In this document: positions 41,592 to 64,000 of the stretch, in pieces
Numbering within the stretch: the first letter of the stretch is position 1
Layout: every line of letters begins with the position of its first letter
Source: an uncultured Clostridia bacterium
GTDB taxonomy: Bacteria; Bacillota; Clostridia; Christensenellales; UBA1242
DNA length: 64,000 nucleotides
Assembly: GCA_948434855.1 (NCBI GenBank)
Contig: CAOJFR010000001.1
Coordinates: 19,629-83,628 of the forward strand
Direction of reading: 5' to 3'
Program-made: the position numbers and the translations under genes
The notes under the pieces: model-generated
The model's input: only the letters and a program-made list of their open reading frames with translations
Databases searched by the model: none
Told to the model about the DNA's origin: nothing

Positions 41592-44500
41592 ATGATAAAA
41601 AAGGCACTTTTTGCATCAAAAAAAATAATAGCAGTAATTGCACTCGTATTTTTTGCGGGTATCTTTTTTGTTGCTTGTTCGCCAAAAACAGAAGCAGCCT
41701 ATGAAATTTCTGGCTATGTTTTTGATGAGCTTGGAGACGCCGTTAAAGATGTAGAAATTAAAAGTGACCTTGGAACAGTGCTTACTGACGAAAACGGAAA
41801 ATATACCATTGCTGGTGTTACAAGCAGTTTAATTTTGCAGGCTTCAAAAGAAAATTATCAATTTGCAGAAGTTAGCAAGCTTGTTTCAAAATCAACTGAT
41901 GATGCAAACTTTACTGCATATAAAAATTATACGGTTAGCGGAACTGTCAACAATAATGGCGTGATGGTTTCAAATGCAACAGTAAAAATTGAATCACTAT
42001 CAGGCAAGTTTTATACCACAACAGATTCAGATGGTGTGTTTTATGGCAAAGATGTTGCTGGGAAGGCGATAATTTCATGCTCTAAAGATGGCTATGATTA
42101 TTATCCTGTAACTGCAGATATTGCAAGTCCAAATGTTTCAGTGAATATAACAACCAGTGTTAAAATAAATTTTAAAACAGATGCCGATAACTTTGATTAT
42201 TCTGATATAAAACTTTTTATTAATGATAAGCCACAATTAATCACAGGCAGTGAAGTTGTTTTAACTGATATAAGGTGTAGGTCTGTAATTAGAATTGAGT
42301 CATCAAAATATGTTTTTAACAAAAAGCAATTTGTTGTTAGTTCACTAAATCAGGCTGAAGAAATTTTTGCTAGCGAAATTTATAGCATTTCAGGCAGGGT
42401 AATAAGTGGAAATATTCCGCTTTCTGGAGCAATCGTTTCTGTGGGAAGCAAAACTGTAACCACAAATTCATTTGGAACATTTACAATTCCAGAGCTTATT
42501 GGAGAGAATGTTGTTTCAGCTTCATATTCTGGCTTAAATTTTGAAGATAAAACTGTTAATAACAAGCTTTCTTTGGAAGATATAGAGTTTAATGGAACAA
42601 AAGTCGTTTCTTTAAACTTAAATTATGATGTTGAACTGGCTGAAGATTTAAAAATTTCTGGTGCAAGCTATGAAAAATTGTCAGCAAACAAATATAAACT
42701 TGTTGACGTGGCTCTTGGAACAAACATTCATATTTCATCAGAAAGCTATCATTTGTTAGAGCAAGACTTTGAAATTTCAGATGCTAACACGATTAATATT
42801 TCAGCTTTTGCCAAATATAGTGCAAATGTAAGTGTAAAAGATGGTCTTAGTGCAACAATATTGCTTGACGGCAAACAGACCACCTTAGATCAACTTAATT
42901 TGTTATATGGAACTCATGAGGTTTCAGCAGTTTATGAAAATTATGTGTTTGATAAAGTGAGTGTTGACTTTTATAACAGCAACATAACCTTAAACTATAT
43001 CATTCCATATTCAGTTAGTTTGCATATCTTGTCTGGTGATGTTTTGGTTAAAAACGCATCGGCAAGTGTTAATGGAAAACAAATTCTGTCTGAAAATGGT
43101 GTAATTAAAATAAACAACCTTATAAATGAAAATACAATCACCATTCAAAGTTCTGGCTATGATGTTAAAGAAGTTAAGGTTAGCGCAGCGGGTGACTATG
43201 ACGTTAACTTAACCTATTTTGTTTCAGGTATTGTAAAAACGGGAACTAATCCTGTTGTCGGTGCAAGAGTTTTTGCTGGTGAAAATTCAACAACAACTAA
43301 CGCTAATGGCGAATATTTGCTTTCGGGGTTATCTGGCACAATTATAATAGAGGTTCAGAAAGATCATTACAATTTTTCTGAAGCCTTGGAAGTTTCAAAA
43401 CAAGAAGATGTGTGGTTTAGTGGAAGTTATAATATTTCAGGAACTCTAAGTAATGACACTGGCGTGGTTAGTGGCTTGACGGTTGTGCTTCGCAATGATA
43501 CAACTGCACAAGAGCAGAGGGTTGAGTCTGACGAGAACGGCGCATATAGTTTTGAAAATCTAACAGAATCTTATTTCTTATTCACAATGAAAAATGGTTC
43601 GCTAAGCGAACTTAAGCCAAATTCATACAACATTATTGGTGGTGGAGTTTATGACTTTAACTTAAACGGCTTTGCAGTTTCAGGAAGGGTTGTGAGTGGA
43701 AACATGGCTGTTGCTGGGGCTTATGTAACAGCAGGTGCAAGCAGCACAGTTTCAGATGAAGATGGCTACTTTACTTTTGAACTTTTAACTGAAACTTGTG
43801 AAATTTTTGTTCAAAAAACTGGTTACGATTTTAGTGGCAGCATTGTTGAGGTTTCTGATAATGTTGATGATATAATTATTGATGGAACATATAGTGTTTC
43901 GGGCAAGATTATTATTTCAGGGAATGCAATATCTGACGTAAACATTTATTCTGATGGGGCTTTGCTTGCAACATCAAATGAAGCAGGTGAATTTACTGCT
44001 ATTGGTTTAAGAGGTACTCAAGAGCTAGAATTTTCAAAAGAAGGCTATGTTTTTGAATCTGTTATTGTTTCAGAAACAGGCAACTTAAATATAACCTGCA
44101 AAATTAAAGTGAGCTTGTCAGTATTTAGTGGAAATAATGCAGTTTGTGATGTAAAATATTATATAAATGGCTTGTATGCAGGCATAATTAATGATAGCAA
44201 AACAGAAATTATTGCAAATTTTGGTGATATAATCAGTTTTGAAAAACTAGGATATGTTATTGAAAATGTTACTGTTACAGAGCCAAAAGCCTGTGTTGCC
44301 AGCAGCACATATAGTGTTTCAGGCAAAGTTTTAAGTGCGAATGTTCCAGTTTCTGGCGTAAGCATTTCAGTTTCAGGGCAAACTGTTATAACAAATCAAA
44401 ATGGTGAATTTTCACTTTCAGGGCTTGCCGGAAATATTGTTTTAAGCTTATCAAAAACGGGTTATGATTTTTCACAAAACATACAAATTTCAGGTTATGA

Positions 44501-46208
44501 GGCCAATGTTCAAATTCAGTCAACCTATAGTGTTTCTGGAAAAATTCTTCTTGGCGAAAAAGCAAACTCAGGCGTTGTTATAACTTATAACAACACTCAG
44601 GTTGTTTCAGATAAGGATGGAAATTTTGAAATAAATAATATTTCAGGCAAATATAGTTTATCGTTCCAAAAAGAGGGCTATACGTTTGACCTAATTGAAG
44701 AAAAGTTTGGAACAGACGAAATTTTGGTTGGTTCATATTATATTGTTTCAGGAAGGGTAATGTCTGGAAGTGAACCAGTTTCGTTTGCAGAAGTTGTTGC
44801 AACTATCAGCAACTCATCAAAAACCATTAGTGCTTCTGCTGATGCAAACGGAAACTTCACAATAACAGGCTTAACAGGAAATGCAATTTTAGTTATAACA
44901 AAACAGGGTTATAGTTCTGCACAAATTGCAAACATAAGTGGCTACACATCTGGCGTGAATGTAAACTTAACCTATTCTATCACAATTAGGTTTGACACAG
45001 AGGGAGTTTTGGTTATCCAAAACTCAGATAAAAAATATCAAGTTTCTGGCAAAGAAATTACAATAAGTGAGCTTGAGGGCATTAACACCTTCACCTTTGA
45101 AAAAAAATATACAAAGTTTTCAAGAACAAGCTTAACAGTTAAAGAGCCACCAGAAACAGAGCTTCCAACAATCACAACATCTGTGGCATACAACATTACA
45201 GGAAGCGTTAAAACTGAAGGCGGTGTTGCAGTTGCGGGCATAACTGTTTATGCAGGCAGCACAAGCATATTTACCAAAACAGATAGCAATGGAAACTTTG
45301 CATTTAATTCAGTGGTTGGTGACTTGTTTGTTAAAGACGGCACATATAATTCAAGCAGTCAAAGAATTGATGGTGAAAGGGCATATAACTTTGTTGTTTC
45401 AAACCCAGACTTTGCTTATTGGATATATTCAACAGGTATAAGTAATCTTGATAATGCGGCAAGTGTTCAAATTTTTGGAAACGGAAATGTTGATGCCGGA
45501 GCAGGTGGAACCCAAAAAGTTTATAGCTTGTTTAAGCGAGATAATAAGGGCAACATTATAAAGCAAAACTTAAACTTAGGAAAAGAAGTTTTTGGAATTA
45601 ATCCAACGGTTGCAGTGCTTACAGTTTATGATGCTAGTAATGACACATATAAATATAACAGAAATTCAAATGTAAGTTCAGACATGACTTCAAGATATGA
45701 TTCGCTAAGTTCACAAAGTGCAAATTTCTTTAAGTCAACCTATGGTGCATATCCATATGAATATGGACCATACAATATAACAAAGGACACAATAACAGGC
45801 GTATCAATTTCAACCAATTCAAGCGGAAATTATGTTGTGGACTTCTCGCTAACCCTAAATTCTCAAGACAATTATAAAAAGCAAATTGTTGGGCTTGCAC
45901 CAGGTGGAACAACCTTTAAAGAATTTAAATATTTAAGGCACTCATATGAAATTAGCAAGAGTGGCTGGATTGTTAAACTATATGCTGATGAGCAATATGT
46001 TGTAAATAAGGTTGTAAATGCAACCACAACATCAAAGTTCACATATTATTACAAAACTTATGCAAAAAATCTTAAAATTGATGATTTAAATTTTTCAAAC
46101 AATGACACAATTCAACAATCGCTTAAAGAAAGCAAACAAACAGAAATAGCCGAAAATTCAGTAAATAGCTTTGGCTATGACATTGTAAGCAAAACAATTT
46201 TTGGTTAA
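41592..46208 (+). CDS. giant predicted lipoprotein with at least 11 CarboxypepD_reg-like beta-sandwich repeats and a unique C-terminal domain
   Basis: The signal peptide ends in a lipobox-like FFVAC|S. The repeated pattern is Y.(V/I)SG.V..G..P(V)SGA.V..G....TN..G.F.I.GL.G......K.GY.F. The last 350 aa or so are non-repetitive. Confidence 0.7.
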   Translation: MIKKALFASKKIIAVIALVFFAGIFFVACSPKTEAAYEISGYVFDELGDAVKDVEIKSDLGTVLTDENGKYTIAGVTSSLILQASKENYQFAEVSKLVSKSTDDANFTAYKNYTVSGTVNNNGVMVSNATVKIESLSGKFYTTTDSDGVFYGKDVAGKAIISCSKDGYDYYPVTADIASPNVSVNITTSVKINFKTDADNFDYSDIKLFINDKPQLITGSEVVLTDIRCRSVIRIESSKYVFNKKQFVVSSLNQAEEIFASEIYSISGRVISGNIPLSGAIVSVGSKTVTTNSFGTFTIPELIGENVVSASYSGLNFEDKTVNNKLSLEDIEFNGTKVVSLNLNYDVELAEDLKISGASYEKLSANKYKLVDVALGTNIHISSESYHLLEQDFEISDANTINISAFAKYSANVSVKDGLSATILLDGKQTTLDQLNLLYGTHEVSAVYENYVFDKVSVDFYNSNITLNYIIPYSVSLHILSGDVLVKNASASVNGKQILSENGVIKINNLINENTITIQSSGYDVKEVKVSAAGDYDVNLTYFVSGIVKTGTNPVVGARVFAGENSTTTNANGEYLLSGLSGTIIIEVQKDHYNFSEALEVSKQEDVWFSGSYNISGTLSNDTGVVSGLTVVLRNDTTAQEQRVESDENGAYSFENLTESYFLFTMKNGSLSELKPNSYNIIGGGVYDFNLNGFAVSGRVVSGNMAVAGAYVTAGASSTVSDEDGYFTFELLTETCEIFVQKTGYDFSGSIVEVSDNVDDIIIDGTYSVSGKIIISGNAISDVNIYSDGALLATSNEAGEFTAIGLRGTQELEFSKEGYVFESVIVSETGNLNITCKIKVSLSVFSGNNAVCDVKYYINGLYAGIINDSKTEIIANFGDIISFEKLGYVIENVTVTEPKACVASSTYSVSGKVLSANVPVSGVSISVSGQTVITNQNGEFSLSGLAGNIVLSLSKTGYDFSQNIQISGYEANVQIQSTYSVSGKILLGEKANSGVVITYNNTQVVSDKDGNFEINNISGKYSLSFQKEGYTFDLIEEKFGTDEILVGSYYIVSGRVMSGSEPVSFAEVVATISNSSKTISASADANGNFTITGLTGNAILVITKQGYSSAQIANISGYTSGVNVNLTYSITIRFDTEGVLVIQNSDKKYQVSGKEITISELEGINTFTFEKKYTKFSRTSLTVKEPPETELPTITTSVAYNITGSVKTEGGVAVAGITVYAGSTSIFTKTDSNGNFAFNSVVGDLFVKDGTYNSSSQRIDGERAYNFVVSNPDFAYWIYSTGISNLDNAASVQIFGNGNVDAGAGGTQKVYSLFKRDNKGNIIKQNLNLGKEVFGINPTVAVLTVYDASNDTYKYNRNSNVSSDMTSRYDSLSSQSANFFKSTYGAYPYEYGPYNITKDTITGVSISTNSSGNYVVDFSLTLNSQDNYKKQIVGLAPGGTTFKEFKYLRHSYEISKSGWIVKLYADEQYVVNKVVNATTTSKFTYYYKTYAKNLKIDDLNFSNNDTIQQSLKESKQTEIAENSVNSFGYDIVSKTIFG

Positions 46209-46234
46209 ACAAACGAAAGCAAAAAGGAGTTTTT

Positions 46235-49200
46235 ATGAAAAGTAAAAGATTCTTCAGAATAACTATATTCGGATTAATTGCAGCGCTAATGCTCTGCACT
46301 CCTTTTGCGATGATAAAAAATACAAAATCAAGCTCATATGCAGCAACATCAGCAAATCATTTTACATATAGCGTTCAAGGTCAAGGACAAAAACTTGTTT
46401 TAGACAGCATTGTTCGTGACGGAAACAATGGGGAATATAAATTATATTTATACTCTAATGGTGGCATAGTTACAGACATAAAAAATGCATTTGAAGTTAA
46501 AAAGTCGCATAACTATGTAACAAAGTTTAACACCACAGAAAATGAATTGTCGCTAAGAATAGATAGTGCTTCATCTGCAGTTAACTCAAACTGTCAGTTT
46601 ATTTCAACCATAAACTTTTCAAATAACATAATAATTGCAGCAAATGCAGGCTTTGTAGCAGCAGATGCAAGTGCATTTGTGTCATCAAGCAAAGATGTAT
46701 ATTCATTTTTGGGCTCTGATCCAGCAGAAAGCGTTGAAATGCAGTTTTATATTTACAATTCAAATAACACATCAAGCTCAGTAAATAAAAACACTGGATA
46801 TGAAGTTAGAGAAGATTATAAAGCCTCACCAGACCAACTTTCTATTGGCTCTTCAGAACTTATCAATCTCAGTGCAAACACATTAGAGCTTATTTTTGTT
46901 TCAAGATATAGCAAGGGCGGAATGACCTCAAGCAACAATCTAAAAATTAAACTTCCAGAGCTTGTTTTTAGAACAACAGATTTAATATCACCAAGCTTAG
47001 AACTTTCTGGTGGCAGCGATGTTTGGGCAAAAGAAAGAGTTTTAAGTTTAACTGGCTCAGACAATGAAAGCGGCATATATAAAGTTGAAGTCAGCAAAAA
47101 TGGTGGCGAGTGGGAAACAGCTGTTGATTTTACAGAAAATAATACTGATTTAAACTTAAATAGCACAGGCGATTTTACATTGACAGAGAACGGAACCTAT
47201 CGCTTTAGAGCAGTGGATAATGTTGGAAATGTTTCCGCTGAAACCACATATATAGAAAGCCATATAGACAACATTGCACCAAGCATTGAAGTTGACAATT
47301 TAACAGGCTTTTATAACACTAAAACATTAACCTTTAGTGCAAATATGCTTGCAAATGATAGCTTAAGTCAAAACACATTTAATTATGTTGTTTCAAAAGA
47401 TGCTGCTGTTGTTTATTCATCAGAGCTTGCTGCACAAAACTCGTTTACTGCACCTGAAAATGGAGAATATACAATTTCATTTTATGCAACAGATGAGGCA
47501 GGAAACGCAAGTGCAGAAATTTCATATTCGCTCTATTTTGTGGATATTGACATTGACAATTTCTTTACCACAAATGAAGTATACTTTAACGCAAACATAA
47601 TTGATGGCTTCAGCTATTCTTATGAAATTGTTAAAGATGGCTTAGTAATTTCAAATTCTGCATTTGTCAACGGAAGCAACAGCTTAACGCTTTCAGAAAA
47701 TGGAAAATATAGCTTAACTTTCAATTTTTATGCAAAATCAGCTGAAAATTCATACACAATTTTAAGCAAAAATATTGATATAGATAATTCGCTTTATCAT
47801 GTAACAACTTCTGCAGTTAACGGAACAATTACTCCATCATTCTCATCACCAAGGGCAAGTGGAATGGTTTTAGAGTTTGCTCCAAATGAAGGCTATGAAC
47901 TATATATGCTTTTGGTTAATGGTGAAGCTAAAATAGTTGACCCTGATGCAACTTCTTACATTTATGAACTTGATAAAGATTTAGTGTTTGAGGCAAAATT
48001 TAGAAAAGTCATTTCAGTTTCTGTTTCAGAAAGCTATGTTTATAACTACGGAAATCTTGACTTAATATATGAGTCAGAAATTTCAGAAAAACTAATTAAT
48101 TTTGAAATTTCAGATGCTGAAGGAAATATAATTTCAGATATATCAGCATATCAGTTTGAAGTTGGAACATATTTAGTTTCATATTCAATTAACACTGAAG
48201 AGTTTGGTGGCAGGGGAAGCATAAATATTCAAATTTTGCCAAAAACAGTTTATGTTTCAAACATTGTTTCGGTTTACAAATTCGCTGAAAGTGGCACAAC
48301 TTTCGTGTTTGAGTCATCTGAAAGCCAAGCAAATATTTATGCAAAATTCTATAAAAATGGAGTGCTTTCAGACTTTGCTGAAGCAGGCGAATATAGCTAT
48401 GAATTTGCCACAGATAATAAGAATTTTGTCGTTTCTTGCACTGGCAATGCCGTTATAATTCCAAACATAACCTCTGTTTATGACAATGTTGTGGTTTATG
48501 ATGGAAACGCTCAAACCCTGAAATTTACGGGTAGTATGTCAGACATTACACTTATTTTTGTAGAATATTACATTAATGGTGAGCTTATCACAAACCCAAC
48601 AAATGTCGGAATTTATAATGCAAAGTTTTATTATGCTCCAAGCAGCAATATATATGAAATTGAAACATCTGAAGAGTTTGTTTTAGAAATAACCAAACGC
48701 AGAATTGAAGTTTCAGTTCAAAGCATAGAGCATGAATATGATGGCACAATTCCTGAGCCAAAATATTTAGTAAAAAACATGGCAGATAACGAAAATTATG
48801 ATTTTCAGCTTATTTGTGACCTTAATGTAAATGTCGGAAACTATGAAGTTAAAATTGAAAGAGTTCCAGCTGGCGAGCTTTTAAATTATGAAATTGTTTA
48901 TAATGATGGTTTTGTAAAAATAACCAAGAGGACTTTAACAATTTTGGCAACAGAGGGCTTGACAAAAGAATATTCATCAGTTGACCCAGAGCTAACATAT
49001 AGCTTTGTTGGTGGGCTTCTTGAGGGTGACACATTTAGCTTAACACTCACACGTGAAGCTGGTGAAAATGTTGGATATTATAGCATTTTGGCTAAGGAGT
49101 TTGTGGCAGAAAACTATGAGCTTAACTTCATTTCAACCAAATTCCAAATCACAAAGCGATTAGGCTTTGTAAGCTTAAAAAATTACAGCAAAGTTTATGG

Positions 49201-51115
49201 CGACAATGACCCAGCTTATGATTTTATTAGAATTAATACAAATATTTTAGATGATGATATTGCAGACATTTTAAATGCAATTACAAGAGAGGCAGGCGAA
49301 GATGTTGGCTCATATAAAATTAGCATAGACCAAAAACTTGTTCAAAACTATGTGTTAATAACAAAAGACGCAACCTTAACAATTTTAAAGAGAGATATTG
49401 TTGTTGTTGCTGACAGGGTTGTTACAACTTATGGCGAAGAAAAAGAACTAACTTTTTCTGCAGATAATATGATTTTTGGCGACACACTTTTGGGCAGTCT
49501 TTCAAGAGAGTCTGGTAAAAATGTGGGCACATATAAAATTAATATTGGCTCACTTTCTAGCAAAAATTATAATATCATAGACTTTGTTTCTGCTGACTAT
49601 GTTATTGAAAAAAGAGTTATTGATGTTGAAGCAATTTCATCAAACAAAACCTATGGCGAGGCAGACAATCTTGAATATAGCGTAACAAACCTTGCTTTTG
49701 GTGACACACTTTCAGGTAGCCTTTCAAGGGAAGCTGGCGAAGATGTGGGTGAGTATGCAATTACAATTGGATCACTTTCAGCAAGCAGCAACTATGAAAT
49801 TAATTTTGTTTCTGGAACATATCAAATTATTCCAGCAGAAATTGAAATTGTTATTGATAGCAAAGTTAAAATGTATGGCGAAGAAGATGAAATGTTAACA
49901 TATTCTGTTTCTAATGTAAATGCAAATTTGTTTAATTTAAAGCTTGTTCGTGAAGCAGGTGAAAATGTAGGAACTTATGAAATTAAGCTTGCAGATGGTC
50001 AAAATTTTAAAAATTATATTGTTGTTTCAGTAAACTATGCAAGCTATGAAATTGTAAAAGCAAAAGTTAATGCAGTTTTAAATAACAAAGAAGTAACATA
50101 TAGTGGCGAGGCTCATGCAATAGACCCACTTAGCATTTCAGGAATTGAAGAGTTTGAAATTGAATATGTTTATTATGATTTTGGCGAGGTTATGGGTGCA
50201 CTTCCTGTTGATGCAAGGGCTTATAGCGTTAAAGCAATTTTTGCAGGAAACGAAAACTTTGAAGCATTTGAAACAAATCTTGCAACACTAAAAATCAATA
50301 AAAAATTCCTTCCAATCACAATCACAAAACAAGAGTTTGTTTATGATGGTGAAGCAAAAGTTCCTGAGTTTAATGTTAATTTAGATGTAGACTTTATGCC
50401 TTATGCAGAGTTTGCTGATGGAAGTCTTCCAACAGAAATTGGCTCATATCCATTCACATTCAACTTAAATATGGGCAGTGGAAACTATTATTATGATGAA
50501 AGTGACGAGTTTAAGGCAATATGTGTGTTAAAAATTGTTTCACCATTTTCAAATTCAAACGGCAATGCTTCAGTTTCAACAAACAGCCCAAATTATTCTG
50601 GTGCAAAACTTCAAATTGTTGAAAATTCAGATTCAAGCCTAAAGTCAATTTTTAGTTCATCAGTTGATGGCAGAAGATGCATTTCAGTTTATTCATTCAG
50701 AAACACTGCTGGTTATGAAAACTATAATGACATTTTAACAATTTCAATAAAAGCAACAAGGGCAGGCAAAAATGTAGAGCTTTATCTTGTTGATAAATAT
50801 GGAAATGTAACACCGGTTTCTTATGAGCTTATTGATGGATATTATGTGCTTTCAGTAAACGACACTAACTCAAGCATTCTTGTTACAGTAACTGACAAAA
50901 CAGCCTTTTATTCAAAAATATTTATTTTTGTAATGGTGCTTGCAATCACATATTATGTTTCAAAAACAATCAGAAAACGTAAGAACAATAATTTCTTCAA
51001 CAAAAACACAAAGATGAGAAAAATTAGCGAAAAAGAATTTTCAGAAAACAAAGAAATTGTTGAGGCTCAAATTATAATGGATGAACCAGTAAGCATTGAT
51101 AGCTTTTTAAGTTAA
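46235..51115 (+). CDS. giant surface protein with Ig-like and at least 5 MBG-type repeats and a C-terminal TM anchor
   Basis: It has an aaggag RBS and a signal peptide. The MBG-like repeats follow the pattern YGE.D..L.YS.....GDTLSGSLSREAGEDVG.Y.I..G.L....NYEI.F. The C-terminus has TM helix IFIFVMVLAITYYV followed by a basic stop-transfer (KTIRKRKNN) and a 60-aa tail. There is no LPXTG motif. Confidence 0.7.
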   Translation: MKSKRFFRITIFGLIAALMLCTPFAMIKNTKSSSYAATSANHFTYSVQGQGQKLVLDSIVRDGNNGEYKLYLYSNGGIVTDIKNAFEVKKSHNYVTKFNTTENELSLRIDSASSAVNSNCQFISTINFSNNIIIAANAGFVAADASAFVSSSKDVYSFLGSDPAESVEMQFYIYNSNNTSSSVNKNTGYEVREDYKASPDQLSIGSSELINLSANTLELIFVSRYSKGGMTSSNNLKIKLPELVFRTTDLISPSLELSGGSDVWAKERVLSLTGSDNESGIYKVEVSKNGGEWETAVDFTENNTDLNLNSTGDFTLTENGTYRFRAVDNVGNVSAETTYIESHIDNIAPSIEVDNLTGFYNTKTLTFSANMLANDSLSQNTFNYVVSKDAAVVYSSELAAQNSFTAPENGEYTISFYATDEAGNASAEISYSLYFVDIDIDNFFTTNEVYFNANIIDGFSYSYEIVKDGLVISNSAFVNGSNSLTLSENGKYSLTFNFYAKSAENSYTILSKNIDIDNSLYHVTTSAVNGTITPSFSSPRASGMVLEFAPNEGYELYMLLVNGEAKIVDPDATSYIYELDKDLVFEAKFRKVISVSVSESYVYNYGNLDLIYESEISEKLINFEISDAEGNIISDISAYQFEVGTYLVSYSINTEEFGGRGSINIQILPKTVYVSNIVSVYKFAESGTTFVFESSESQANIYAKFYKNGVLSDFAEAGEYSYEFATDNKNFVVSCTGNAVIIPNITSVYDNVVVYDGNAQTLKFTGSMSDITLIFVEYYINGELITNPTNVGIYNAKFYYAPSSNIYEIETSEEFVLEITKRRIEVSVQSIEHEYDGTIPEPKYLVKNMADNENYDFQLICDLNVNVGNYEVKIERVPAGELLNYEIVYNDGFVKITKRTLTILATEGLTKEYSSVDPELTYSFVGGLLEGDTFSLTLTREAGENVGYYSILAKEFVAENYELNFISTKFQITKRLGFVSLKNYSKVYGDNDPAYDFIRINTNILDDDIADILNAITREAGEDVGSYKISIDQKLVQNYVLITKDATLTILKRDIVVVADRVVTTYGEEKELTFSADNMIFGDTLLGSLSRESGKNVGTYKINIGSLSSKNYNIIDFVSADYVIEKRVIDVEAISSNKTYGEADNLEYSVTNLAFGDTLSGSLSREAGEDVGEYAITIGSLSASSNYEINFVSGTYQIIPAEIEIVIDSKVKMYGEEDEMLTYSVSNVNANLFNLKLVREAGENVGTYEIKLADGQNFKNYIVVSVNYASYEIVKAKVNAVLNNKEVTYSGEAHAIDPLSISGIEEFEIEYVYYDFGEVMGALPVDARAYSVKAIFAGNENFEAFETNLATLKINKKFLPITITKQEFVYDGEAKVPEFNVNLDVDFMPYAEFADGSLPTEIGSYPFTFNLNMGSGNYYYDESDEFKAICVLKIVSPFSNSNGNASVSTNSPNYSGAKLQIVENSDSSLKSIFSSSVDGRRCISVYSFRNTAGYENYNDILTISIKATRAGKNVELYLVDKYGNVTPVSYELIDGYYVLSVNDTNSSILVTVTDKTAFYSKIFIFVMVLAITYYVSKTIRKRKNNNFFNKNTKMRKISEKEFSENKEIVEAQIIMDEPVSIDSFLS

Positions 51116-56067: not shown

Positions 56068-56175
56068 GTTTTTATAAAATCCTACAAATTTTGACAAAAA
56101 TACTCAAAAAATTGCAAACTCTTCTATTTTTTGCACCAGAAAGTGTGCTATGATTATTGCATGAGGAGGAAATTT

Positions 56176-56490
56176 ATGGAAATTAACTACTTAAATAAAG
56201 ACGATTCAGTTTATGCTGAACTTTCGGGTGAGTTAGATGAATATTCAGCTGAATACGTTCGCATTTCTCTAGACGACTTGCTTTCAGGTGGCTTAAAGAA
56301 CAAAACGAAGCTGGTTCTAGATTTTTCAAGAGTTTCGTTTATGGATTCAACGGGCATAGGAGTTTTGCTTGGAAGGTATAACAAGTTTTCAAAAAATGAC
56401 ATATCAATCTATATCAAAAATCCAACTTCATATGTAAACAGAATATTTGAAATGACAGGAATATATCAAATTATTCCAAAAGTATCTTAA
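56176..56490 (+). CDS. spoIIAA: anti-sigma-F factor antagonist SpoIIAA
   Basis: A STAS domain with SFMDSTGIGVLLGRY (phosphorylatable Ser). A gaggagg RBS precedes the ATG at 56176. Confidence 0.9.
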   Translation: MEINYLNKDDSVYAELSGELDEYSAEYVRISLDDLLSGGLKNKTKLVLDFSRVSFMDSTGIGVLLGRYNKFSKNDISIYIKNPTSYVNRIFEMTGIYQIIPKVS

Positions 56491-56501
56491 AGGAGAAGTT
56501 T

Positions 56502-56927
56502 ATGGCATACGATAATTATTTCAAACTAGAGATCTATGCAAAAAATGTAAATGAAAGCTTTGCAAGGGGCGTAGTTGCACTTTTTGCCTCAGAACTCAAA
56601 CCAACAATATCAGAGATAAATGACATAAAAACAGCAGTGAGTGAAGCAGTAACAAACTCTGTTGTGCATGGCTATGAAAACAAAGGAGGAAAAATTGTTC
56701 TTGAGGCAGGCATAACGGGCAACACGCTAGATATTACGGTCAGCGATAATGGAATTGGCATAAGCGACATAGACATGGCTCTTCAACCATTTTTCACCAC
56801 CAAGTCTGAAGAAGAACACTCAGGAATGGGTTTCACCTTAATGGACTCTTTTATGAATAACTTAGAAGTAAAAAAGAACACGCCAAATGGGCTTATAGTT
56901 CATATGACCAAGGTGATAAAGGGCTAA
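56502..56927 (+). CDS. spoIIAB: anti-sigma-F factor / serine kinase SpoIIAB
   Basis: The HATPase_c motifs EAVTNSVVHGY, DNGIGI and SGMGFT are present. Confidence 0.9.
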   Translation: MAYDNYFKLEIYAKNVNESFARGVVALFASELKPTISEINDIKTAVSEAVTNSVVHGYENKGGKIVLEAGITGNTLDITVSDNGIGISDIDMALQPFFTTKSEEEHSGMGFTLMDSFMNNLEVKKNTPNGLIVHMTKVIKG

Positions 56928-57664
56928 TGGACGAATATAAGCCAATAGACCAAATCCAAACAAATGAACTAATAGAGAGGTCTAAGGCTGGTGATAGTGA
57001 GGCGACAGAAAAGCTAGTTAGTGGAAATTTTCCGTTAATAAAGGCAATCGTTAAGGGCTATTTAAATAAGGGCGTGGAATATGACGACTTATATCAAATT
57101 GGCTGTGTAGGATTTTTAAAGGCAATAAAAAACTTTGACCCAAATTTTGCCGTAAAATTTTCCACCTATGCTGTTCCAATGATTTCCGGAGAAATAAAGA
57201 GATTTTTAAGGGATGATGGCAGCGTAAAAGTTTCAAGGTCAATAAAAACATTGGCAATAAAACTTAAGGCATTTATTGAAAAAAAGAAGTCAGAAACAGG
57301 CGTCACGCCGTCTATTGATGAGTTAGAGGCAGAATTTAAGGTAGAAAAAGAAGATATTGTCATGGCGCTAGATTCTCAGCAGCAAACAGTATCACTTCAG
57401 GCAAAGCTAGATGAAGATGACCCAAACAGCCAAAATGTGATAGATAAGCTTGTTGAAACAGACAAAAATGATGATATGCTTGATAAAATAATCTTAAAAG
57501 ACGCCATAATGTCGCTCCCTGAGAAAGAGAAGAAGATAATACTTCTTAGATATTATCGTGGAAAAACTCAGGGCGAAGTCGCTGAAATGTTAGATATTTC
57601 GCAAGTGCAAGTTTCAAGAATAGAAACAAAAATAATAGAACAATTAAAAAAGAAATTAATATAG
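56927..57664 (+). CDS. sigF: sporulation sigma factor SigF
   Basis: Sigma-70 regions 2-4 are present (DLYQIGCVGFLKAIKNFD, STYAVPMISGEIKRFLRD, GKTQGEVAEMLDISQVQVSRIE). The start overlaps the spoIIAB stop (TAATG). Confidence 0.9.
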   Translation: MDEYKPIDQIQTNELIERSKAGDSEATEKLVSGNFPLIKAIVKGYLNKGVEYDDLYQIGCVGFLKAIKNFDPNFAVKFSTYAVPMISGEIKRFLRDDGSVKVSRSIKTLAIKLKAFIEKKKSETGVTPSIDELEAEFKVEKEDIVMALDSQQQTVSLQAKLDEDDPNSQNVIDKLVETDKNDDMLDKIILKDAIMSLPEKEKKIILLRYYRGKTQGEVAEMLDISQVQVSRIETKIIEQLKKKLI

Positions 57665-57772: not shown

Positions 57773-58018
57773 TTAATCAATATCTAAATTTTCTCTTTTA
57801 AATAAGGCATCATCAAAAAATTCTTGCAAAGTCGTTCCTAATCCATCGCAAATTTTGATGAGTGTCAAAAGATTAATGCCTTCATAAGTTTCATTCATAA
57901 TATTTCTTAAGGTTGATTCAGTTATTCCTGCGTTCTTACAAAGCTTATATTGGGTTGAAACCTTATTTTTAACCATTAAATTACTAATTCTTAGTGCTAT
58001 TGCTCTTTTTAATGTCAT
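57773..58018 (-). CDS. XRE-family HTH regulator (81 aa)
   Basis: The ATG at 58018 follows an agagg RBS. The HTH reads STQYKLCKNAGITESTLRNIMN. Confidence 0.7.
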   Translation of the reverse strand: MTLKRAIALRISNLMVKNKVSTQYKLCKNAGITESTLRNIMNETYEGINLLTLIKICDGLGTTLQEFFDDALFKRENLDID

Positions 58019-58065
58019 ACAAAAACCTCTATATAAATAAAGTTTACCAAAAAACAAAAATTAAA

Positions 58066-59099: not shown

Positions 59100-59771
59100 A
59101 TGAATAGCACTCAGTTTGAAAACAATAATCATGTGATACTAAAGGGAAAAATAAGCAAGCTTCCTGCTTATTCGCATACAGTAATGGGAGAAGGCTTTTT
59201 TGAGATGTTTGTTGATGTTCAAAGATTATCAGATGAGGTAGACACTCTTCCAGTAACAATTTCTGAAAGACTAATAACAGATTTCAAAATCGGTGATGAA
59301 ATAGGAATTGTAGGACAGTTCAGAAGTTATAATAAACAAGACGATACAAAAAGCAAATTAATGCTAACAATATTTGTAAAAGAAATTGTAGACCCAAATG
59401 ATTTGAGTGAAATTAATCAAATATATTTGGTTGGTTATATATGCAAAGAGCCAATCTACAGAACAACTCCGTTCGGGCGTGAAATATGCGATGTGCTTCT
59501 TGCGGTTAATAGAGCATATAATAAAAGCGATTATCTTCCATGTATTGCATGGGGCAGAAATGCAAGATTTGTTCGTGATCTTGGTGTTGGTGAAAAATTA
59601 GAGGTTCAAGGAAGAGTTCAAAGCAGAAAATATCAAAAGAAGATAGATGAAACTCATTCAGAAACAAGAGTTGCGTATGAAATTTCACTTTCAAGCGTAA
59701 TAATAGTTGACAGCAGTGAAAATGTCTATGATTTTGCAGAAGAAGATATAGACATAGCTGAAGCAAAATAA
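59100..59771 (+). CDS. SSB-related protein with two tandem OB-fold-like halves and an acidic tail
   Basis: An internal duplication is visible by eye: NHVILKGKISKLP...VGQFRSYN versus NQIYLVGYICKEP...VQGRVQSRKY. The C-terminus is DFAEEDIDIAEAK. Confidence 0.5.
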   Translation: MNSTQFENNNHVILKGKISKLPAYSHTVMGEGFFEMFVDVQRLSDEVDTLPVTISERLITDFKIGDEIGIVGQFRSYNKQDDTKSKLMLTIFVKEIVDPNDLSEINQIYLVGYICKEPIYRTTPFGREICDVLLAVNRAYNKSDYLPCIAWGRNARFVRDLGVGEKLEVQGRVQSRKYQKKIDETHSETRVAYEISLSSVIIVDSSENVYDFAEEDIDIAEAK

Positions 59772-59897: not shown

Positions 59898-60098
59898 ATG
59901 GAGTTTATAGAAATATTGCAAGAGATAATGATTGAAAACAACTTAAATCAAAGCCAGCTTGCAACAATGATTGGCGTAAAGCAATCGCAGGTTAGTGAAT
60001 GGCTAAGTGGAAAAAGCAAGCCAGGTTATGATAACTTAAAGGCAATTTGCTCTGCACTTATGATAAGTGGAGATTATATTTTAGGCTTAGAGAAATAA
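59898..60098 (+). CDS. XRE-family HTH regulator (66 aa)
   Basis: The HTH reads LNQSQLATMIGVKQSQVSEWLSG. An agaggg RBS precedes it. Confidence 0.75.
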   Translation: MEFIEILQEIMIENNLNQSQLATMIGVKQSQVSEWLSGKSKPGYDNLKAICSALMISGDYILGLEK

Positions 60099-60153: not shown

Positions 60154-61281
60154 CTACTTATTTTTTAGTTTTTCCATAAGGTCAAAAATAATATAAAAAT
60201 TTTCTCTTTGTTTGCCACAAAGCAAAATTTGATTATTTTCACCATAAACCTTCAAAACATTATTAGGCAAAAGTTCAATGTCAAAAATGTTAGAATAGTC
60301 AAATTTTTCAGTTTTGCCATCATAGCTTAAAACAAAATGGTCAGCAAATATCAAAAGCTCAGCCAAACAAGAAGTTTTTTTATTTAAAGATTCATCGGTA
60401 TATTTAATTATATTTTTATAACCAACAACAAGCTTATTTCCAAAGTCATATTGCATTAAAATAAATTTCTGAAATTCTTTTGCACTATCAAAGCTGTCAA
60501 AGTGTCGGGTAAGGCTCAATTCGCCAGAATCAGAAAGTTCAAAAGCAGTTCCGCAGTTTTCGCATTTAATGCAAGAAATTTCAGAATATAGTGAAAATAA
60601 GTTTTTGCAATGTGGGCAGGCATAAATAATGCTTTCAAGATTTTCTGCAGGTTTTTTGCCTCTCAAAAACAGGGGATATTTGCGAATATAAGTGCTTGCA
60701 GAAGAAGGCATAAAGCCATTAAATTTTTCGTTATATTCAGTATCAGACATATTTCTTGTGCTTGCAGCAGAAAGGCTAAAACGCTGTTCAATTTTGGTTT
60801 CACACTTGTTTTCATATTGGCTCCAAACGGGCTTAATAAAATAAGTGTTAATAAGGCTAAAAAATCTAACTTTTTTTCCAAATTCTTTAATAAAATTGGT
60901 TATGCATTTTGGAATAGCCTCATAATCTCCAAAAACGGTCCTGTGCTTTTCTGGAAAAATAACAAGAGAAATATCATTTTTAAAAAGTTGTTCAATAAGG
61001 TTTTTAAGCTCGTTTGTTTCACTTTCGCCAAGCTCAGAATTATATAATTTTCTAATAACTTCGTCCTTCAAAAACAAGTGAGGCGAAGTTATGCTTAAAG
61101 ACACAAAAAACTTGTCATAGTCAGATGATTTGTTGCAAACAAAAATCTCAGCAAGGTCAGAAGAAACCTGCATCATATTCATAGAATATCGCAGTGAAAA
61201 AATATAATTTTTGGCCTTAGATGCTGGCAATTCAAAGAAGCGTTCATCATAAAACTTTTTGAGATTAATTTTTTTATCCAT
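60154..61281 (-). CDS. putative acyltransferase with PlsC-like motifs and an internal zinc ribbon (tentative)
   Basis: The start was set at the ATG at 61281 (MDKKINLKK...). It has SPHLFLKD (HX4D-like), VIFPEKHRT (FPEGTR-like) and CPHCKN-x13-CIKCENCG. Confidence 0.45.
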   Translation of the reverse strand: MDKKINLKKFYDERFFELPASKAKNYIFSLRYSMNMMQVSSDLAEIFVCNKSSDYDKFFVSLSITSPHLFLKDEVIRKLYNSELGESETNELKNLIEQLFKNDISLVIFPEKHRTVFGDYEAIPKCITNFIKEFGKKVRFFSLINTYFIKPVWSQYENKCETKIEQRFSLSAASTRNMSDTEYNEKFNGFMPSSASTYIRKYPLFLRGKKPAENLESIIYACPHCKNLFSLYSEISCIKCENCGTAFELSDSGELSLTRHFDSFDSAKEFQKFILMQYDFGNKLVVGYKNIIKYTDESLNKKTSCLAELLIFADHFVLSYDGKTEKFDYSNIFDIELLPNNVLKVYGENNQILLCGKQRENFYIIFDLMEKLKNK

Positions 61282-61326
61282 ATCATAATTATAAGTAAAA
61301 AAATTAAAAATATCAATAAAAATTAG

Positions 61327-61355
61327 TTGTGAAAAATAAAATGATATTTTATAAT
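61327..61355 (+). promoter_or_regulatory. candidate promoter of the alpha-oxoamine synthase gene
   Basis: TTGTGA, a 17-nt spacer, then TATAAT (61350-61355). Confidence 0.35.
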
Positions 61356-61386
61356 ATTTTTGGTAGAAATTCAAGGAGAAACTTTA

Positions 61387-62574
61387 ATGGATTTATTTAA
61401 AAAATGTGAAGAATTTACACTTGTTAAAGAAGTAAAAGAAAAAGGAATTTATCCATACTTTCATGTGCTAGAATCAAAGCAAGACACCGTTGTAAACATG
61501 GAAGGTGGCAGAAAGATTATGATTGGCTCAAACAACTATCAAGGCTTAACCAGCGACCCAAGAGTTATTGAGGCTTCAGTTAAGGCAACAGAAGAGTTTG
61601 GAACAGGATGTTCAGGTTCAAGGTTTTTAAACGGAACAACAACTCTTCATAACACGCTAGAAAAAGAGCTTGCCGAGTTTTTAGGTAAAGAAGATTGCGT
61701 TACAATGAGCACAGGTTTTCAAACAAATCTTGGCATAATTTCTGCAATTTGTGGCAGAAAAGACTATATTTTGTGTGATAAAGAAAATCATGCATCAATT
61801 TATGATGCCTGCAAACTTTCATATGCAACAATGGTTCGCTTCAATCACTTAGATTATGTTGATTTAGAGAAAAAGCTTGCTAGCATTCCAGAAGATGCAG
61901 GAATTTTAATTGTAACTGATGGCATTTTTTCAATGACAGGCGACATTTGTGACCTTCCAAAACTTGTTGAGTTAAAAAAGAAATATGGTGCAAGACTTAT
62001 GGTTGATGACGCGCATTGCATGGGCGTAATTGGAAAAACCGGTGCGGGTACTGCAGAATATTTTGGCTTAACAGATGAAGTTGACATAATTTCAGGAACA
62101 TTCTCTAAATCGCTTGCAAGCATTGGTGGATATTGTGCTTGTGACAGGGAAGTAGCAGAGTTTATCAGACACACTTCAAGACCATTTATTTTCAGTGCAT
62201 CAATCACACCAGCTGCGCTTGCAGCAACCTTAGAGGCACTTCATATAATAAGGTCAGAACCAGAAAGGGTTGCACACTTAACCGAAGTTGCAGAATATAT
62301 GAGAGAGTGCCTAAGGGCAAGAAACATAAAATTTGCTGATAGCAAGGCACCAATCATTGCACTTTTCACATACGAGCAGGATATTACTCTTGCAGTGTGC
62401 AAAAGATTGTTTGAAGAGGGCGTTTATGCAAACCCAGTAATGCCACCAGCAACTCCAGCAGGTCAGTGTTTGGTTAGAACAACATATACAGCCACTCACA
62501 AAAAAGAAGAGCTTGAAGAAGCAGCAGATATTATTGCAAAAGTTTTTGCAGAGTTTGGCTTAATTGAAAAATAA
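61387..62574 (+). CDS. PLP-dependent alpha-oxoamine synthase, serine-palmitoyltransferase-like subfamily
   Basis: The ATG at 61387 follows aaggag. The motifs are GSNNYQGL, GSRFLNGT, NHASIYDAC, DDAHCMG, GTFSKSLAS (PLP lysine) and PPATPAG. Confidence 0.75.
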   Translation: MDLFKKCEEFTLVKEVKEKGIYPYFHVLESKQDTVVNMEGGRKIMIGSNNYQGLTSDPRVIEASVKATEEFGTGCSGSRFLNGTTTLHNTLEKELAEFLGKEDCVTMSTGFQTNLGIISAICGRKDYILCDKENHASIYDACKLSYATMVRFNHLDYVDLEKKLASIPEDAGILIVTDGIFSMTGDICDLPKLVELKKKYGARLMVDDAHCMGVIGKTGAGTAEYFGLTDEVDIISGTFSKSLASIGGYCACDREVAEFIRHTSRPFIFSASITPAALAATLEALHIIRSEPERVAHLTEVAEYMRECLRARNIKFADSKAPIIALFTYEQDITLAVCKRLFEEGVYANPVMPPATPAGQCLVRTTYTATHKKEELEEAADIIAKVFAEFGLIEK

Positions 62575-62738: not shown

Positions 62739-63029
62739 CTAAAAATTTTTTCTTATAAAATGTGACTTGTTATGAAATTTCCTGCTAATATTTTTTAATT
62801 TATTGTCCTTTTTTATATCTTTTAAAACAAATTTAATAAGTTGTAAGCACTCACATTTGTGATATTCGCTTAGTTCATATAAAATCTTTTCAAAAAGGTC
62901 TTTTTGTTTCTTATTTAAACTGTGTTTAAGACAGCATTCATCAACAATGATTTTAGTATTTTTCATTACGCCATCATAAAACCCATCTTCTTCATAAAAA
63001 CGATAATATAATTCATTTATGTATTTCAT
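62739..63029 (-). CDS. hypothetical protein (96 aa from the ATG at 63029)
   Basis: The ORF is divergent from an XRE gene. Its start is uncertain. No motif was recognised. Confidence 0.4.
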   Translation of the reverse strand: MKYINELYYRFYEEDGFYDGVMKNTKIIVDECCLKHSLNKKQKDLFEKILYELSEYHKCECLQLIKFVLKDIKKDNKLKNISRKFHNKSHFIRKNF

Positions 63030-63032
63030 ATA

Positions 63033-63041
63033 TGTTATAAT
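63033..63041 (+). promoter_or_regulatory. extended -10 element (TGtTATAAT) facing the XRE gene
   Basis: TGTTATAAT lies on the plus strand 58 nt upstream of the ATG at 63099. It overlaps the divergent -10 and has the same core as the 11-bp array unit. Confidence 0.35.
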
Positions 63042-63065
63042 AATCTTACAATAGTAAGAAGTCAA
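63037..63065 (-). promoter_or_regulatory. candidate minus-strand promoter giving a leaderless mRNA
   Basis: Read on the minus strand: TTGACT (63065-63060), a 17-nt spacer, TATTAT (63042-63037), 7 nt, then the ATG (63029). Confidence 0.4.
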
Positions 63066-63098: not shown

Positions 63099-63311
63099 AT
63101 GAAAATAATAAATGCATTTAGCGAGAATTTAAAAATGCTTAGAGAGGAAAGAAAAATAGGGCAGGTTCAACTTGCAGAAGCCATAGGCGTAAGTAAAGGT
63201 GTTATAAGTTTATGGGAGAATGGACATAGAGAGCCAACGTTAACATCTCTTATAGCCCTTGCGAATTATTTTGATATATCACTAAATGAATTAGTTTCTT
63301 CTGAAGCATAA
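63099..63311 (+). CDS. XRE-family HTH regulator (70 aa)
   Basis: The HTH reads IGQVQLAEAIGVSKGVISLWENGHREP. Confidence 0.75.
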   Translation: MKIINAFSENLKMLREERKIGQVQLAEAIGVSKGVISLWENGHREPTLTSLIALANYFDISLNELVSSEA

Positions 63312-63553: not shown

Positions 63554-63817
63554 TTATTCATCGTCATCATCAAGCCCCATAGACTTATAAAAGTCGTCTA
63601 AAGATGGCTCAGCGCCGCTAAGGTCAATTTTATCTATAGGAATTTCCACAAAGCCTTTTTCGTTAGTGTTAAACTCATCAATGCAAGCGCCGCAGTTGTT
63701 GCAAATTTTGGTTGGGTCAAGGTCGCAAAGGTCGCATTCACCGCAATCGTCACACTTTTTAAATTCGTCCAAAACGCACATGCCGTTTTCATCACCATGT
63801 TTATCAAAATTTCTCAT
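63554..63817 (-). CDS. small acidic 8-cysteine protein (87 aa)
   Basis: The ATG at 63817 lies 4 nt after aaggag (aaggagaattttATG). The Cys pattern is symmetric: C-x7-C-x2-C-x2-C-x2-C-x7-C-x2-C-x2-C. The C-terminus is GLDDDDE. Confidence 0.6.
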   Translation of the reverse strand: MRNFDKHGDENGMCVLDEFKKCDDCGECDLCDLDPTKICNNCGACIDEFNTNEKGFVEIPIDKIDLSGAEPSLDDFYKSMGLDDDDE

Positions 63818-64000
63818 AAAATTCTCCTTATACAGCACATTTTAGCATATAGTTAAAAGAATTTCAACAAAAACAATAAATATATCAAAAGTTAGTTAAA
63901 ACGGGAAAATATCAAGGTTTTAAGAGAAAAAATCACACTTGTTTGTAAAAAAACCTGTGTTTTTAGCTTTTTAACTTAAAAGCGACTCAAAATTAAAGAC

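Follow-up and report, generated by a model that had tools for sequence, protein, structure and literature searches.

The window studied here, a 64,000-nucleotide stretch of contig CAOJFR010000001.1 from an uncultured Clostridia bacterium (assembly GCA_948434855.1; G000:C1:19629-83628 in our numbering, the genome itself being G000), encodes a pyridoxal 5′-phosphate (PLP)-dependent alpha-oxoamine synthase that is most like serine palmitoyltransferase (Spt), rather than 2-amino-3-ketobutyrate CoA ligase (KBL) or BioF. Taking all the evidence together, we consider it reasonably probable that this synthase starts a sphingoid-base pathway from serine and a scavenged acyl chain, that the reduction has been handed to a different short-chain dehydrogenase/reductase (SDR), and that the divergently transcribed neighbor, called NB in the following, is a remodeled descendant of an acyltransferase whose link to the pathway is not established. 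What is particular to this window is the missing KdsR reductase, the candidate substitute SDR and a PlsC-fold neighbor with a conserved His-to-Lys change. An earlier note on this DNA had described the two open reading frames (ORFs) as a divergent pair, which is indeed how they lie, and all the peptides quoted there (GSRFLNGT, GTFSKS, NHASIYDAC, PPATPAG, SPHLFLKD, VIFPEKHRT and CxxC...CxxC) are present in the translations. The features concerned are the following.

61387-62574, plus strand: Spt-like alpha-oxoamine synthase, PLP-dependent, 395 amino acids from ATG (Pfam Aminotran_1_2, 199 bits; NCBIfam; PDB; tree).
60154-61281, minus strand: NB, 375 amino acids from ATG, with a PlsC/LPLAT-fold domain (about residues 1-201), a C4 zinc ribbon and a PH-like domain (about residues 279-375).
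61282-61386, no strand: 105-bp divergent intergenic region with two back-to-back sigma-70-like promoters (sequence, promoter scan and alignment).

The ATG of the synthase is preceded by AGGAG, and an alternative TTG start at 61360 would extend the protein by nine residues to 404. In Pfam only the broad Aminotran_1_2 family was matched. The top NCBIfam match was NF047600 SerpalmtaseCFB, with residues 3-390 aligned to profile positions 5-392 at 517.3 bits, below the curated equivalog threshold of 640 bits; it was followed by the beta-proteobacterial Spt (408 bits), bioF (371.4 bits) and KBL (368.7 bits), so that SerpalmtaseCFB scored about 146 bits above both bioF and KBL. The same model was the top family for six further members of the clostridial clade, at 519-557 bits and in no case at 640 or above. 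Among the 49 distinct PDB sequences matched by the synthase, the best was the SPT of S. multivorum (Sphingobacterium multivorum; SmSPT; 3A2B, 8GUH) at 412 bits, ahead of S. wittichii SPT (294 bits), the best KBL/AONS chain (268 bits), CFAT (191 bits), E. coli BioF (185 bits) and CqsA (129 bits). The synthase is the sole member of its family in its own genome and is 76-96% identical within the lineage.

In SmSPT, according to excerpts of PMC10196870, PLP is contacted by His138, Asp210, Ala212, His213, Thr241 and Lys244, the serine carboxylate is held by His138, Ser81 and the main chain of Met271, the serine hydroxyl is reached through waters from Asn52, Gly80 and Ser243, and the acyl pocket is lined by Tyr27 and Phe83. 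We placed these residues by hand on the alignment from the PDB search, in which the synthase number is the number in that paper minus 3. The counterparts are H135, D207, A209, H210, T238, K241, S78, N49, G77, S240, Y24 and F80, and across 29 clostridial homologues each of them is either invariant or conserved to at least 90%. Invariant in this set are K241, H135, D207, H210, T238, S240, N49, G77, S78, S182, F269, A271, Y24 and F25, and F80 and L81 are kept in at least 90%. The Met271 of SmSPT, of which only the backbone is used, corresponds to Ile in the synthase. The predicted sites can be listed as follows.

Synthase K241: predicted PLP-lysine.
Synthase H135, D207 and H210: predicted PLP contacts.
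Synthase G77-S78-R79-F80-L81-N82: predicted substrate loop.
Synthase R364: predicted carboxylate binding.

The synthase shares with the CFB-type Spt of Bacteroidota (S. multivorum SPT, NF047600) an end-to-end match, the GTFSKS context of the PLP-lysine, the His/Asp/His contacts to PLP, the GSRFLN loop and the Tyr/Phe acyl pocket. It differs from it in the score (517 versus 640 bits), in the loop before the conserved Arg, which reads MPPATP, and in the host, which belongs to Gram-positive-type, spore-forming Clostridia. With these residues in place, the enzyme would most likely condense L-serine with a long-chain acyl thioester to a 3-keto long-chain base of the 3-ketosphinganine type.

In a careful IQ-TREE run of 58 rows, clostridial paralogues labeled by NCBIfam were used as references, with curated Spt, CFAT, ALAS and CqsA left out, so that the placement of the synthase relative to these four is one of score rankings only. 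The references were 20 lower-identity paralogues from the sampled Clostridia: seven past the KBL cut-off, five past that of the BioF/Kbl-family, two past that of bioF, four unlabeled and two intermediate ones with Spt as the top family. The 40 Spt-like rows formed one clade with 100/100 support on a branch of 0.71, apart from the KBL (100/99), Kbl-family (100/99) and BioF (99/96) clades. In several Clostridia genomes an Spt-like gene is accompanied by a KBL-like paralogue.

Spt-like genes are not confined to this lineage. In a class-wide sample of 399 scored Clostridia genomes, G000 included, a full-length match at 54-67% identity was found in 51 of the 398 others; below this group there is a gap down to 47-48% (2 genomes), and then come matches at 32-42%, which are KBL/BioF-like. 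In order to see which genes accompany the synthase outside its own family, we compared 15-kb stretches around 20 Spt-like genes from at least 10 clostridial families. In 11 of these 20 loci the synthase has a classical SDR (263-304 amino acids) as its neighbor (10 recognized by clustering and 1 by tblastn), divergent to it in some and co-directional in others. In all 10 of the SDRs that were scanned, KdsR (NF049977) was the top NCBIfam family at 221-306 bits, leading the next SDR family by 6-48 bits and staying below the 400-bit cut-off in every case. A protein matching the acyltransferase family PF01553 was found within two genes on either side of the synthase in none of the 20 loci. Across Clostridia, what recurs beside the Spt-like gene is a KdsR-like reductase (for example L025:6170-6961) rather than an acyltransferase. 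BT_0972 of B. thetaiotaomicron is a characterized bacterial 3-ketosphinganine reductase (excerpts of PMC9278070), and the clostridial loci share with it the top-scoring family of the reductase and the logic of condensation followed by ketoreduction.

The lineage of the window departs from this arrangement. Its genome assembly (1.23 Mb in 55 contigs, 95.5% complete and 3.5% contaminated) was compared within a set of 61 genomes sampled from its family, representing 58 genera and mostly of 0.8-1.3 Mb. The synthase is present in 38 of them and a KdsR-like match of at least 200 bits in 27, namely in 23 of the 38 synthase-positive genomes and in 4 of the 23 synthase-negative ones; in 8 genomes the KdsR-like gene adjoins the synthase. 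Among the 15 genomes that have the synthase and no such match are G000, G447 of its own genus and their nearest relatives. In G000 the best match to NF049977 reached 96.7 bits over 195 of 267 positions, against the cut-off of 400, and KdsR was the top family for none of its five SDRs; the best matches in the genus were 96.7 and 90.7 bits. The likeness to BT_0972 and KdsR seen elsewhere in Clostridia is accordingly not found in this genome or genus, where the candidate substitute is an SDR of another type:

C24:12963-13757 of the own genome, outside the window: C24 SDR, 265 amino acids, with a basic and hydrophobic C-terminal tail.

The start of the C24 SDR overlaps the stop of an upstream ORF of 463 amino acids. 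Full-length orthologues (198-323 bits) occur in 10 of the 61 family genomes, G000 counted; each of these ten has the synthase and no KdsR-like match of at least 200 bits. No orthologue was found in the 23 genomes with both synthase and KdsR-like gene or in the 23 synthase-negative ones, the best match there being 136 bits in G416. G454, which has lost the synthase at the syntenic position, has no detected C24 SDR either. Being confined to synthase-positive, KdsR-negative relatives, the C24 SDR may replace the KdsR-like ketoreductase in this sub-lineage, where it would be the candidate for reducing the 3-keto base.

Other genes occasionally found beside the synthase in Clostridia are an acyl-CoA-ligase-like gene, glycosyltransferases and a zinc-type alcohol dehydrogenase. 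At L023 (G102:C1), L028 (G004:C10) and L021/L033 (family f58) the Spt-like gene lies by further lipid-related candidates, which are a long-chain acyl-CoA-ligase-like gene, GT2/GT4 glycosyltransferases or a DUF6938 protein of 438-476 amino acids. Such neighbors may be leads to head-group or activation steps.

For the acyl substrate, no ketoacyl synthase (PF00109), the fatty-acid condensing enzyme, was found in the own genome, while control genomes were matched. One acyl carrier protein (ACP; C7:17374-17619), PlsX and four DegV/FakB-type proteins are present. AMP-binding was matched only once, by a fragment covering 78 positions and interrupted by an in-frame TAG (C44:1154-1384); an intact acyl-CoA ligase was not found. 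On the strength of this inventory from a 95%-complete assembly, in which the condensing enzyme and an intact acyl-CoA ligase are lacking and PlsX, one ACP and four DegV/FakB proteins are retained, the organism would seem to be auxotrophic for fatty acids and to make its membranes from acyl chains that it scavenges. Fatty acids taken up would probably pass through the FakB/DegV proteins and PlsX to the single ACP, and the acyl donor of the synthase is likely to be acyl-ACP rather than acyl-CoA.

That the synthase is instead a housekeeping KBL or BioF, serving threonine/glycine metabolism or biotin synthesis, is exceedingly improbable. The enzymes share the fold-type I alpha-oxoamine synthase superfamily, the KBL and bioF models do match at about 370 bits, and one source names a close homologue "8-amino-7-oxononanoate synthase"; but these scores miss the thresholds of all three models (368.7 versus 460 bits for NF005394 and 308.8 versus 493 for TIGR01822, both KBL; 371.4 versus 426.45 for the BioF model TIGR00858), and the synthase falls outside the KBL, Kbl-family and BioF clades with full support, and other Clostridia have true KBL-like paralogues alongside their Spt-like genes. 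The earlier note had also pointed to the absence of threonine dehydrogenase and biotin genes nearby, which extends to the whole genome as far as it was searched: tdh (TIGR00692) gave no match at E ≤ 0.001, SDR-type threonine dehydrogenases not being specifically searched, and bioA (TIGR00508) gave none, bioB and bioD not being searched; control genomes were matched by both models. The call of Spt over KBL/BioF made in that note is thus upheld by the NCBIfam ranking, the PDB ranking and the tree.

A distinctly unlikely, although less easily dismissed, alternative is that the synthase makes another amino-ketone, from alanine or glycine (1-deoxy bases), from cysteate, or with a short or medium acyl chain, as a signal or specialized metabolite. 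Similar active sites serve different substrates among alpha-oxoamine synthases, the score lies under the Spt equivalog cut-off, and no head-group or ceramide-synthase gene was identified, bCerS and CerR types not being specifically searched. Ala and Gly are also used, if inefficiently, by SmSPT (excerpts of PMC10196870). On the other side, all the serine-contacting and acyl-pocket residues of SmSPT are kept, CFAT and CqsA are much more distant, the usual partner in Clostridia is most like the Bacteroides 3-ketosphinganine reductase, and 76-96% identity in a 1.2-Mb genome fits a core membrane function better.

NB matches no family in Pfam or NCBIfam, and PF01553 (Acyltransferase) is unmatched at E ≤ 0.01. 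The assignment of a PlsC-family fold and a zinc ribbon, made earlier from motifs, is supported by a predicted structure. An AlphaFold 2 model built on the alignment of its 24 orthologues (30-69% identity) has a pLDDT of 91.6, and residues 1-201 superpose on PlsC of T. maritima (5KYM) with a Foldseek E value of 8.8e-5 and, by VIA-align, Z 13.5 and rmsd 3.5 Å over 172 aligned residues; the plant GPAT 1IUQ gave Z 11.5. The zinc ribbon, with four invariant Cys (C222/C225 and C240/C243), lies between the PlsC-fold and the PH-like domain, and the latter (279-375) matches PH-like domains at Z 11-13. A profile of the orthologues found 1,592 relatives. Among 20 distant ones that were scanned, which share the architecture of NB, all 20 match PF01553 and several give weak zinc-ribbon matches; most are of about 390-440 amino acids, six are longer (543-618), and three of these six also match a VTT/DedA membrane domain. 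A further protein-cluster search with NB returned only unnamed or PF01553 clusters, from Bacillota.

The active site of NB is altered. Aligned with PF01553-positive relatives, the family motif NH(T)xxxD falls on N-K-S-S-D-Y-D at residues 50-56, so that K51 stands for the catalytic His and D56 is kept. The Lys is present in all 24 orthologues and in G447. The His-bearing form NHTxDYD belongs to the orthologues at this position in 7 sister genomes and also to G401 and 14 distant relatives; L044:5195-6370 encodes a His-bearing orthologue. The SPHLFLKD peptide, which had been taken for the HX4D motif, lies about 15 residues downstream of this true site, and its His varies (H/Y/F) among orthologues. 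For the proposed FPE..R motif, VIFPEKHRT is present. At least 90% of orthologues keep FPE (109-111) but have K/R/V/T for the Gly of motif III, which reads FPEG(T/N)(R/K) in PlsC/LPLAT acyltransferases generally and FPEGN(K/R)S in the family of NB. NB also has P(V/I)W where the family has PRW, the Arg being lost, and an invariant PSSA (192-195) that is without counterpart in the wider family. NB resembles PlsC and PF01553 in the N-terminal fold, the motif III residues FPE and the HX4D Asp, and differs from them in the lack of a Pfam match, in these substitutions, and in the added zinc ribbon, PH-like domain and lineage-specific PSSA.

NB evolves faster than the synthase, with a median identity of 37% versus 84% over 55 within-lineage pairs; between sister genera the synthase stands at 70% and the His-bearing orthologue at 47.5% (10 pairs). 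We read NB as a remodeled or non-catalytic lipid-binding protein derived from an ordinary PlsC-type acyltransferase. Its history would have run from a His-bearing enzyme through the change of His to Lys, the changes in motifs III and IV and the fixation of PSSA, under fast evolution.

The conservation of the pair was then considered as proof that NB and the synthase are coupled, and it was rejected as such. The divergent pair is kept in 13 of 14 related loci (L002-L015), the fourteenth being cut at a contig end. However, the whole surrounding 10-kb block is equally syntenic as far as each locus reaches, and it consists of unrelated genes (formate-tetrahydrofolate ligase, a trypsin-like protease, a spoIIA-type operon, a polysaccharide deacetylase and a gene similar to that of single-stranded DNA-binding protein, SSB).

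In sister genera the locus has the order mutS, mutL, miaA, methionine-gamma-lyase-family gene, acyltransferase, synthase, lexA, and the acyltransferase at this position is an ordinary His-bearing PF01553 protein. It lies head-to-head with the synthase in G447, G423, G435 and G424 and one gene off in G431; in G430 the two genes are on different contigs, and in G453 both are at contig ends, where adjacency is not assessable. Either gene also occurs alone: G410 has the synthase and a C24-type SDR and no acyltransferase, and G454 has the acyltransferase and neither synthase nor C24-type SDR. The synthases of these sister genomes, apart from G430 and G454, fall into a 99/98-supported clade of 17 rows. 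As this is a single clade, the adjacency of synthase and acyltransferase counts as one historical event. Class-wide, matches to the acyltransferase profile lie on other contigs or far from the synthase in the genomes in which coordinates were compared. The adjacency of NB to the synthase is therefore probably inherited synteny and not an obligate partnership. As a separate observation, the synthase of G454 is missing exactly between acyltransferase and lexA (L054, G454:C19:13000-21931), a clean positional loss.

These data bear on the two-gene minimal pathway of the earlier note, in which NB would add a second acyl chain to the amino-ketone or sphingoid base to give a ceramide-like or N-acyl aminolipid, any reduction following afterwards as in the Caulobacter step order. 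We regard it as unlikely. In its favor, the two genes diverge from a common 105-bp promoter region that was retained in all of the 13 testable lineage loci, NB has the PlsC fold and conserved pocket residues, and the fusions to VTT/DedA membrane domains in its family point to membrane-lipid work. The acyltransferase is head-to-head with the synthase or one gene off in 5 of the 61 family genomes, all in the KdsR-less clade. Among the family genomes with the synthase, 9 of the 15 KdsR-negative and 5 of the 23 KdsR-positive ones hold a member of the acyltransferase family, a weak contrast since the genomes are kin. A precedent for N-acylation before keto reduction, the order that such a pathway would need without KdsR, is the ceramide pathway of Caulobacter crescentus with Spt, bCerS and CerR (excerpts of PMC11087976); it differs in gene order and families. 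Against the pathway stand the equal synteny of the unrelated block genes, the genomes that hold one gene alone, the KdsR-like reductase and not a PF01553 protein as the partner in other families, the scattered positions of acyltransferase-family members across the class, the count of the adjacency as one event, and the loss of the catalytic His together with the motif III/IV residues. The fold of bCerS differs from that of PlsC.

NB could also be a pseudoenzyme, no longer transferring acyl groups but binding lipids or membranes and serving in structure or regulation with a loose connection to the synthase or none at all, which is conceivable, if doubtful. The His is lost in 24 of 24 orthologues, the Gly and Arg positions of motifs III and IV are changed, and evolution is accelerated relative to the His-bearing orthologues, with the frame intact, the fold confident and the zinc ribbon and PH-like domain retained. 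Yet K51, T52, D56, FPE and PSSA are invariant or nearly so, which looks more like a re-tuned pocket than decay, and the Lys could in principle act as a base. To the further idea that NB, through the His-to-Lys change, altered acceptor motifs and the new PSSA, has been re-tooled into a new enzyme acting on the Spt product, for instance by N-acylating 3-ketosphinganine, and forms a ceramide route with the C24 SDR, we give little chance; if true, Gram-positive, fatty-acid-scavenging gut Clostridia would have a ceramide route unlike either known bacterial route. The predicted complex of synthase and NB scored 0.00 in two runs without controls, which bears neither way on binding.

The reading that we favor, a sphingoid-base pathway with a replaced reductase and NB as a remodeled acyltransferase descendant outside any established link, has several points against it. 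With 517 bits against 640, the NCBI rule would not call the synthase Spt, and serine specificity is not reliably readable from sequence in the alpha-oxoamine synthase family, SmSPT itself accepting Ala and Gly, if poorly. KdsR-like genes are also found in the 4 synthase-negative family genomes. The best family of the C24 SDR is mycolate reductase, at 114 bits versus a cut-off of 380, and its neighbors are housekeeping genes; five synthase-positive, KdsR-negative genomes (G411, G418, G431, G432 and G442) lack it, and a single clade, not repeated events, may account for where it occurs. Some points also speak against dismissing NB: it has stayed head-to-head with the synthase in 5 genera of the 99/98 clade without KdsR, the intact frame, confident fold and invariant pocket residues hold in all 24 orthologues, and G401 has a KdsR-like gene at a distance of two genes from an acyltransferase-family protein. 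The gene models, the family affinities, the fold of NB, the changes in its motifs, the distributions and the tree are results of the analysis, and the substrates, the product, the origin of the acyl chains, the part played by the C24 SDR and any activity of NB are inferred. Finally, the related records are titled as uncultured Clostridia metagenome-assembled genomes, and this is true of the relatives found without exception.

The view of the earlier note that this lineage lies outside the established sphingolipid makers is in line with the literature: in the available portions of the sources searched, including PMC11334938, PMC11087976, PMC10865984, PMC9278070, PMC11211663, PMC10626005, PMC10191378 and bioRxiv 10.1101/2025.09.11.675017, it is not among the producers named, and no report of sphingolipid synthesis by Clostridia was found. 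Low-homology homologues of the reductase are reported in 12-14% of Firmicutes genomes (excerpts of PMC11211663). Gut-bacterial sphingolipids affect host immunity and lipid metabolism, and an Spt-like gene in 51 of 398 Clostridia genomes, usually with a KdsR-like reductase, would widen the likely producers to abundant uncultured gut Firmicutes. That a lineage with genomes of about 1 Mb and without a detected fatty-acid condensing enzyme still keeps the synthase so well conserved, and that the reductase has apparently been swapped for a different SDR, adds to the interest of the system. The natural His-to-Lys variant of a PlsC active site, fixed and conserved, poses a clean enzymological question.

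The region between the two genes carries the following promoter-like elements.

61327-61355, plus strand: synthase promoter TTGTGA-17-TATAAT, followed by AGGAG and ATG.
61316-61288, minus strand: NB promoter TTGATA-17-TATAAT, a promoter-like match.

A promoter scan gave 19 sites versus 16.7 expected, which is not above chance, and the promoter call is based on the conservation of the boxes across species and not on the scan. When 14 intergenic regions were aligned, at least 85% of the rows retained each of the two −10 boxes, the AGGA and the two start codons. The −10 box of NB ends about 6 nt before the ATG (61279-61293, minus strand), no Shine-Dalgarno sequence follows, and this layout is kept in the 14 aligned regions. 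With a −10 box so close to the start codon and no Shine-Dalgarno sequence, the NB mRNA is probably leaderless, as judged from the nucleotide sequence.

The other genes of the window, whose G+C content is about 31-39%, provide context. The claim that the organism is a spore-former is backed by a spoIIA-type operon in the same window, which is part of the conserved block with the gene pair and lies outside the proposed pathway.

56131-57664, plus strand: spoIIA-type operon of STAS antagonist, anti-sigma kinase and sigma factor (Pfam STAS, HATPase_c_2, Sigma70_r2/r4).
57773-58057 (minus strand), 59898-60098 (plus strand), 62739-63065 (minus strand) and 63099-63311 (plus strand): small helix-turn-helix (HTH) genes and an ORF of 108 amino acids.

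The last group, three small XRE/Cro-type HTH genes and a family-less 108-residue ORF, is scattered around the pair. When ORFs of at least 80 amino acids were compared, a counterpart was found only for the 108-residue ORF and only in L002; these genes may be lineage-specific insertions. Two very large adjacent ORFs (1538 and 1626 amino acids) lie at 41592-51115 on the plus strand. At 59100-59771 (plus strand), beside the polysaccharide deacetylase, a protein of 223 amino acids matches SSB (PF00436) in its C-terminal half; it is extended at the N terminus by about 100 residues, ends in an acidic tail and is 76-92% identical in relatives. Near the synthase, at 63554-63838 on the minus strand, a Cys-rich acidic protein of 94 amino acids with several CxxC and no Pfam family is 69-80% identical in close relatives and 45-57% in sister genera.

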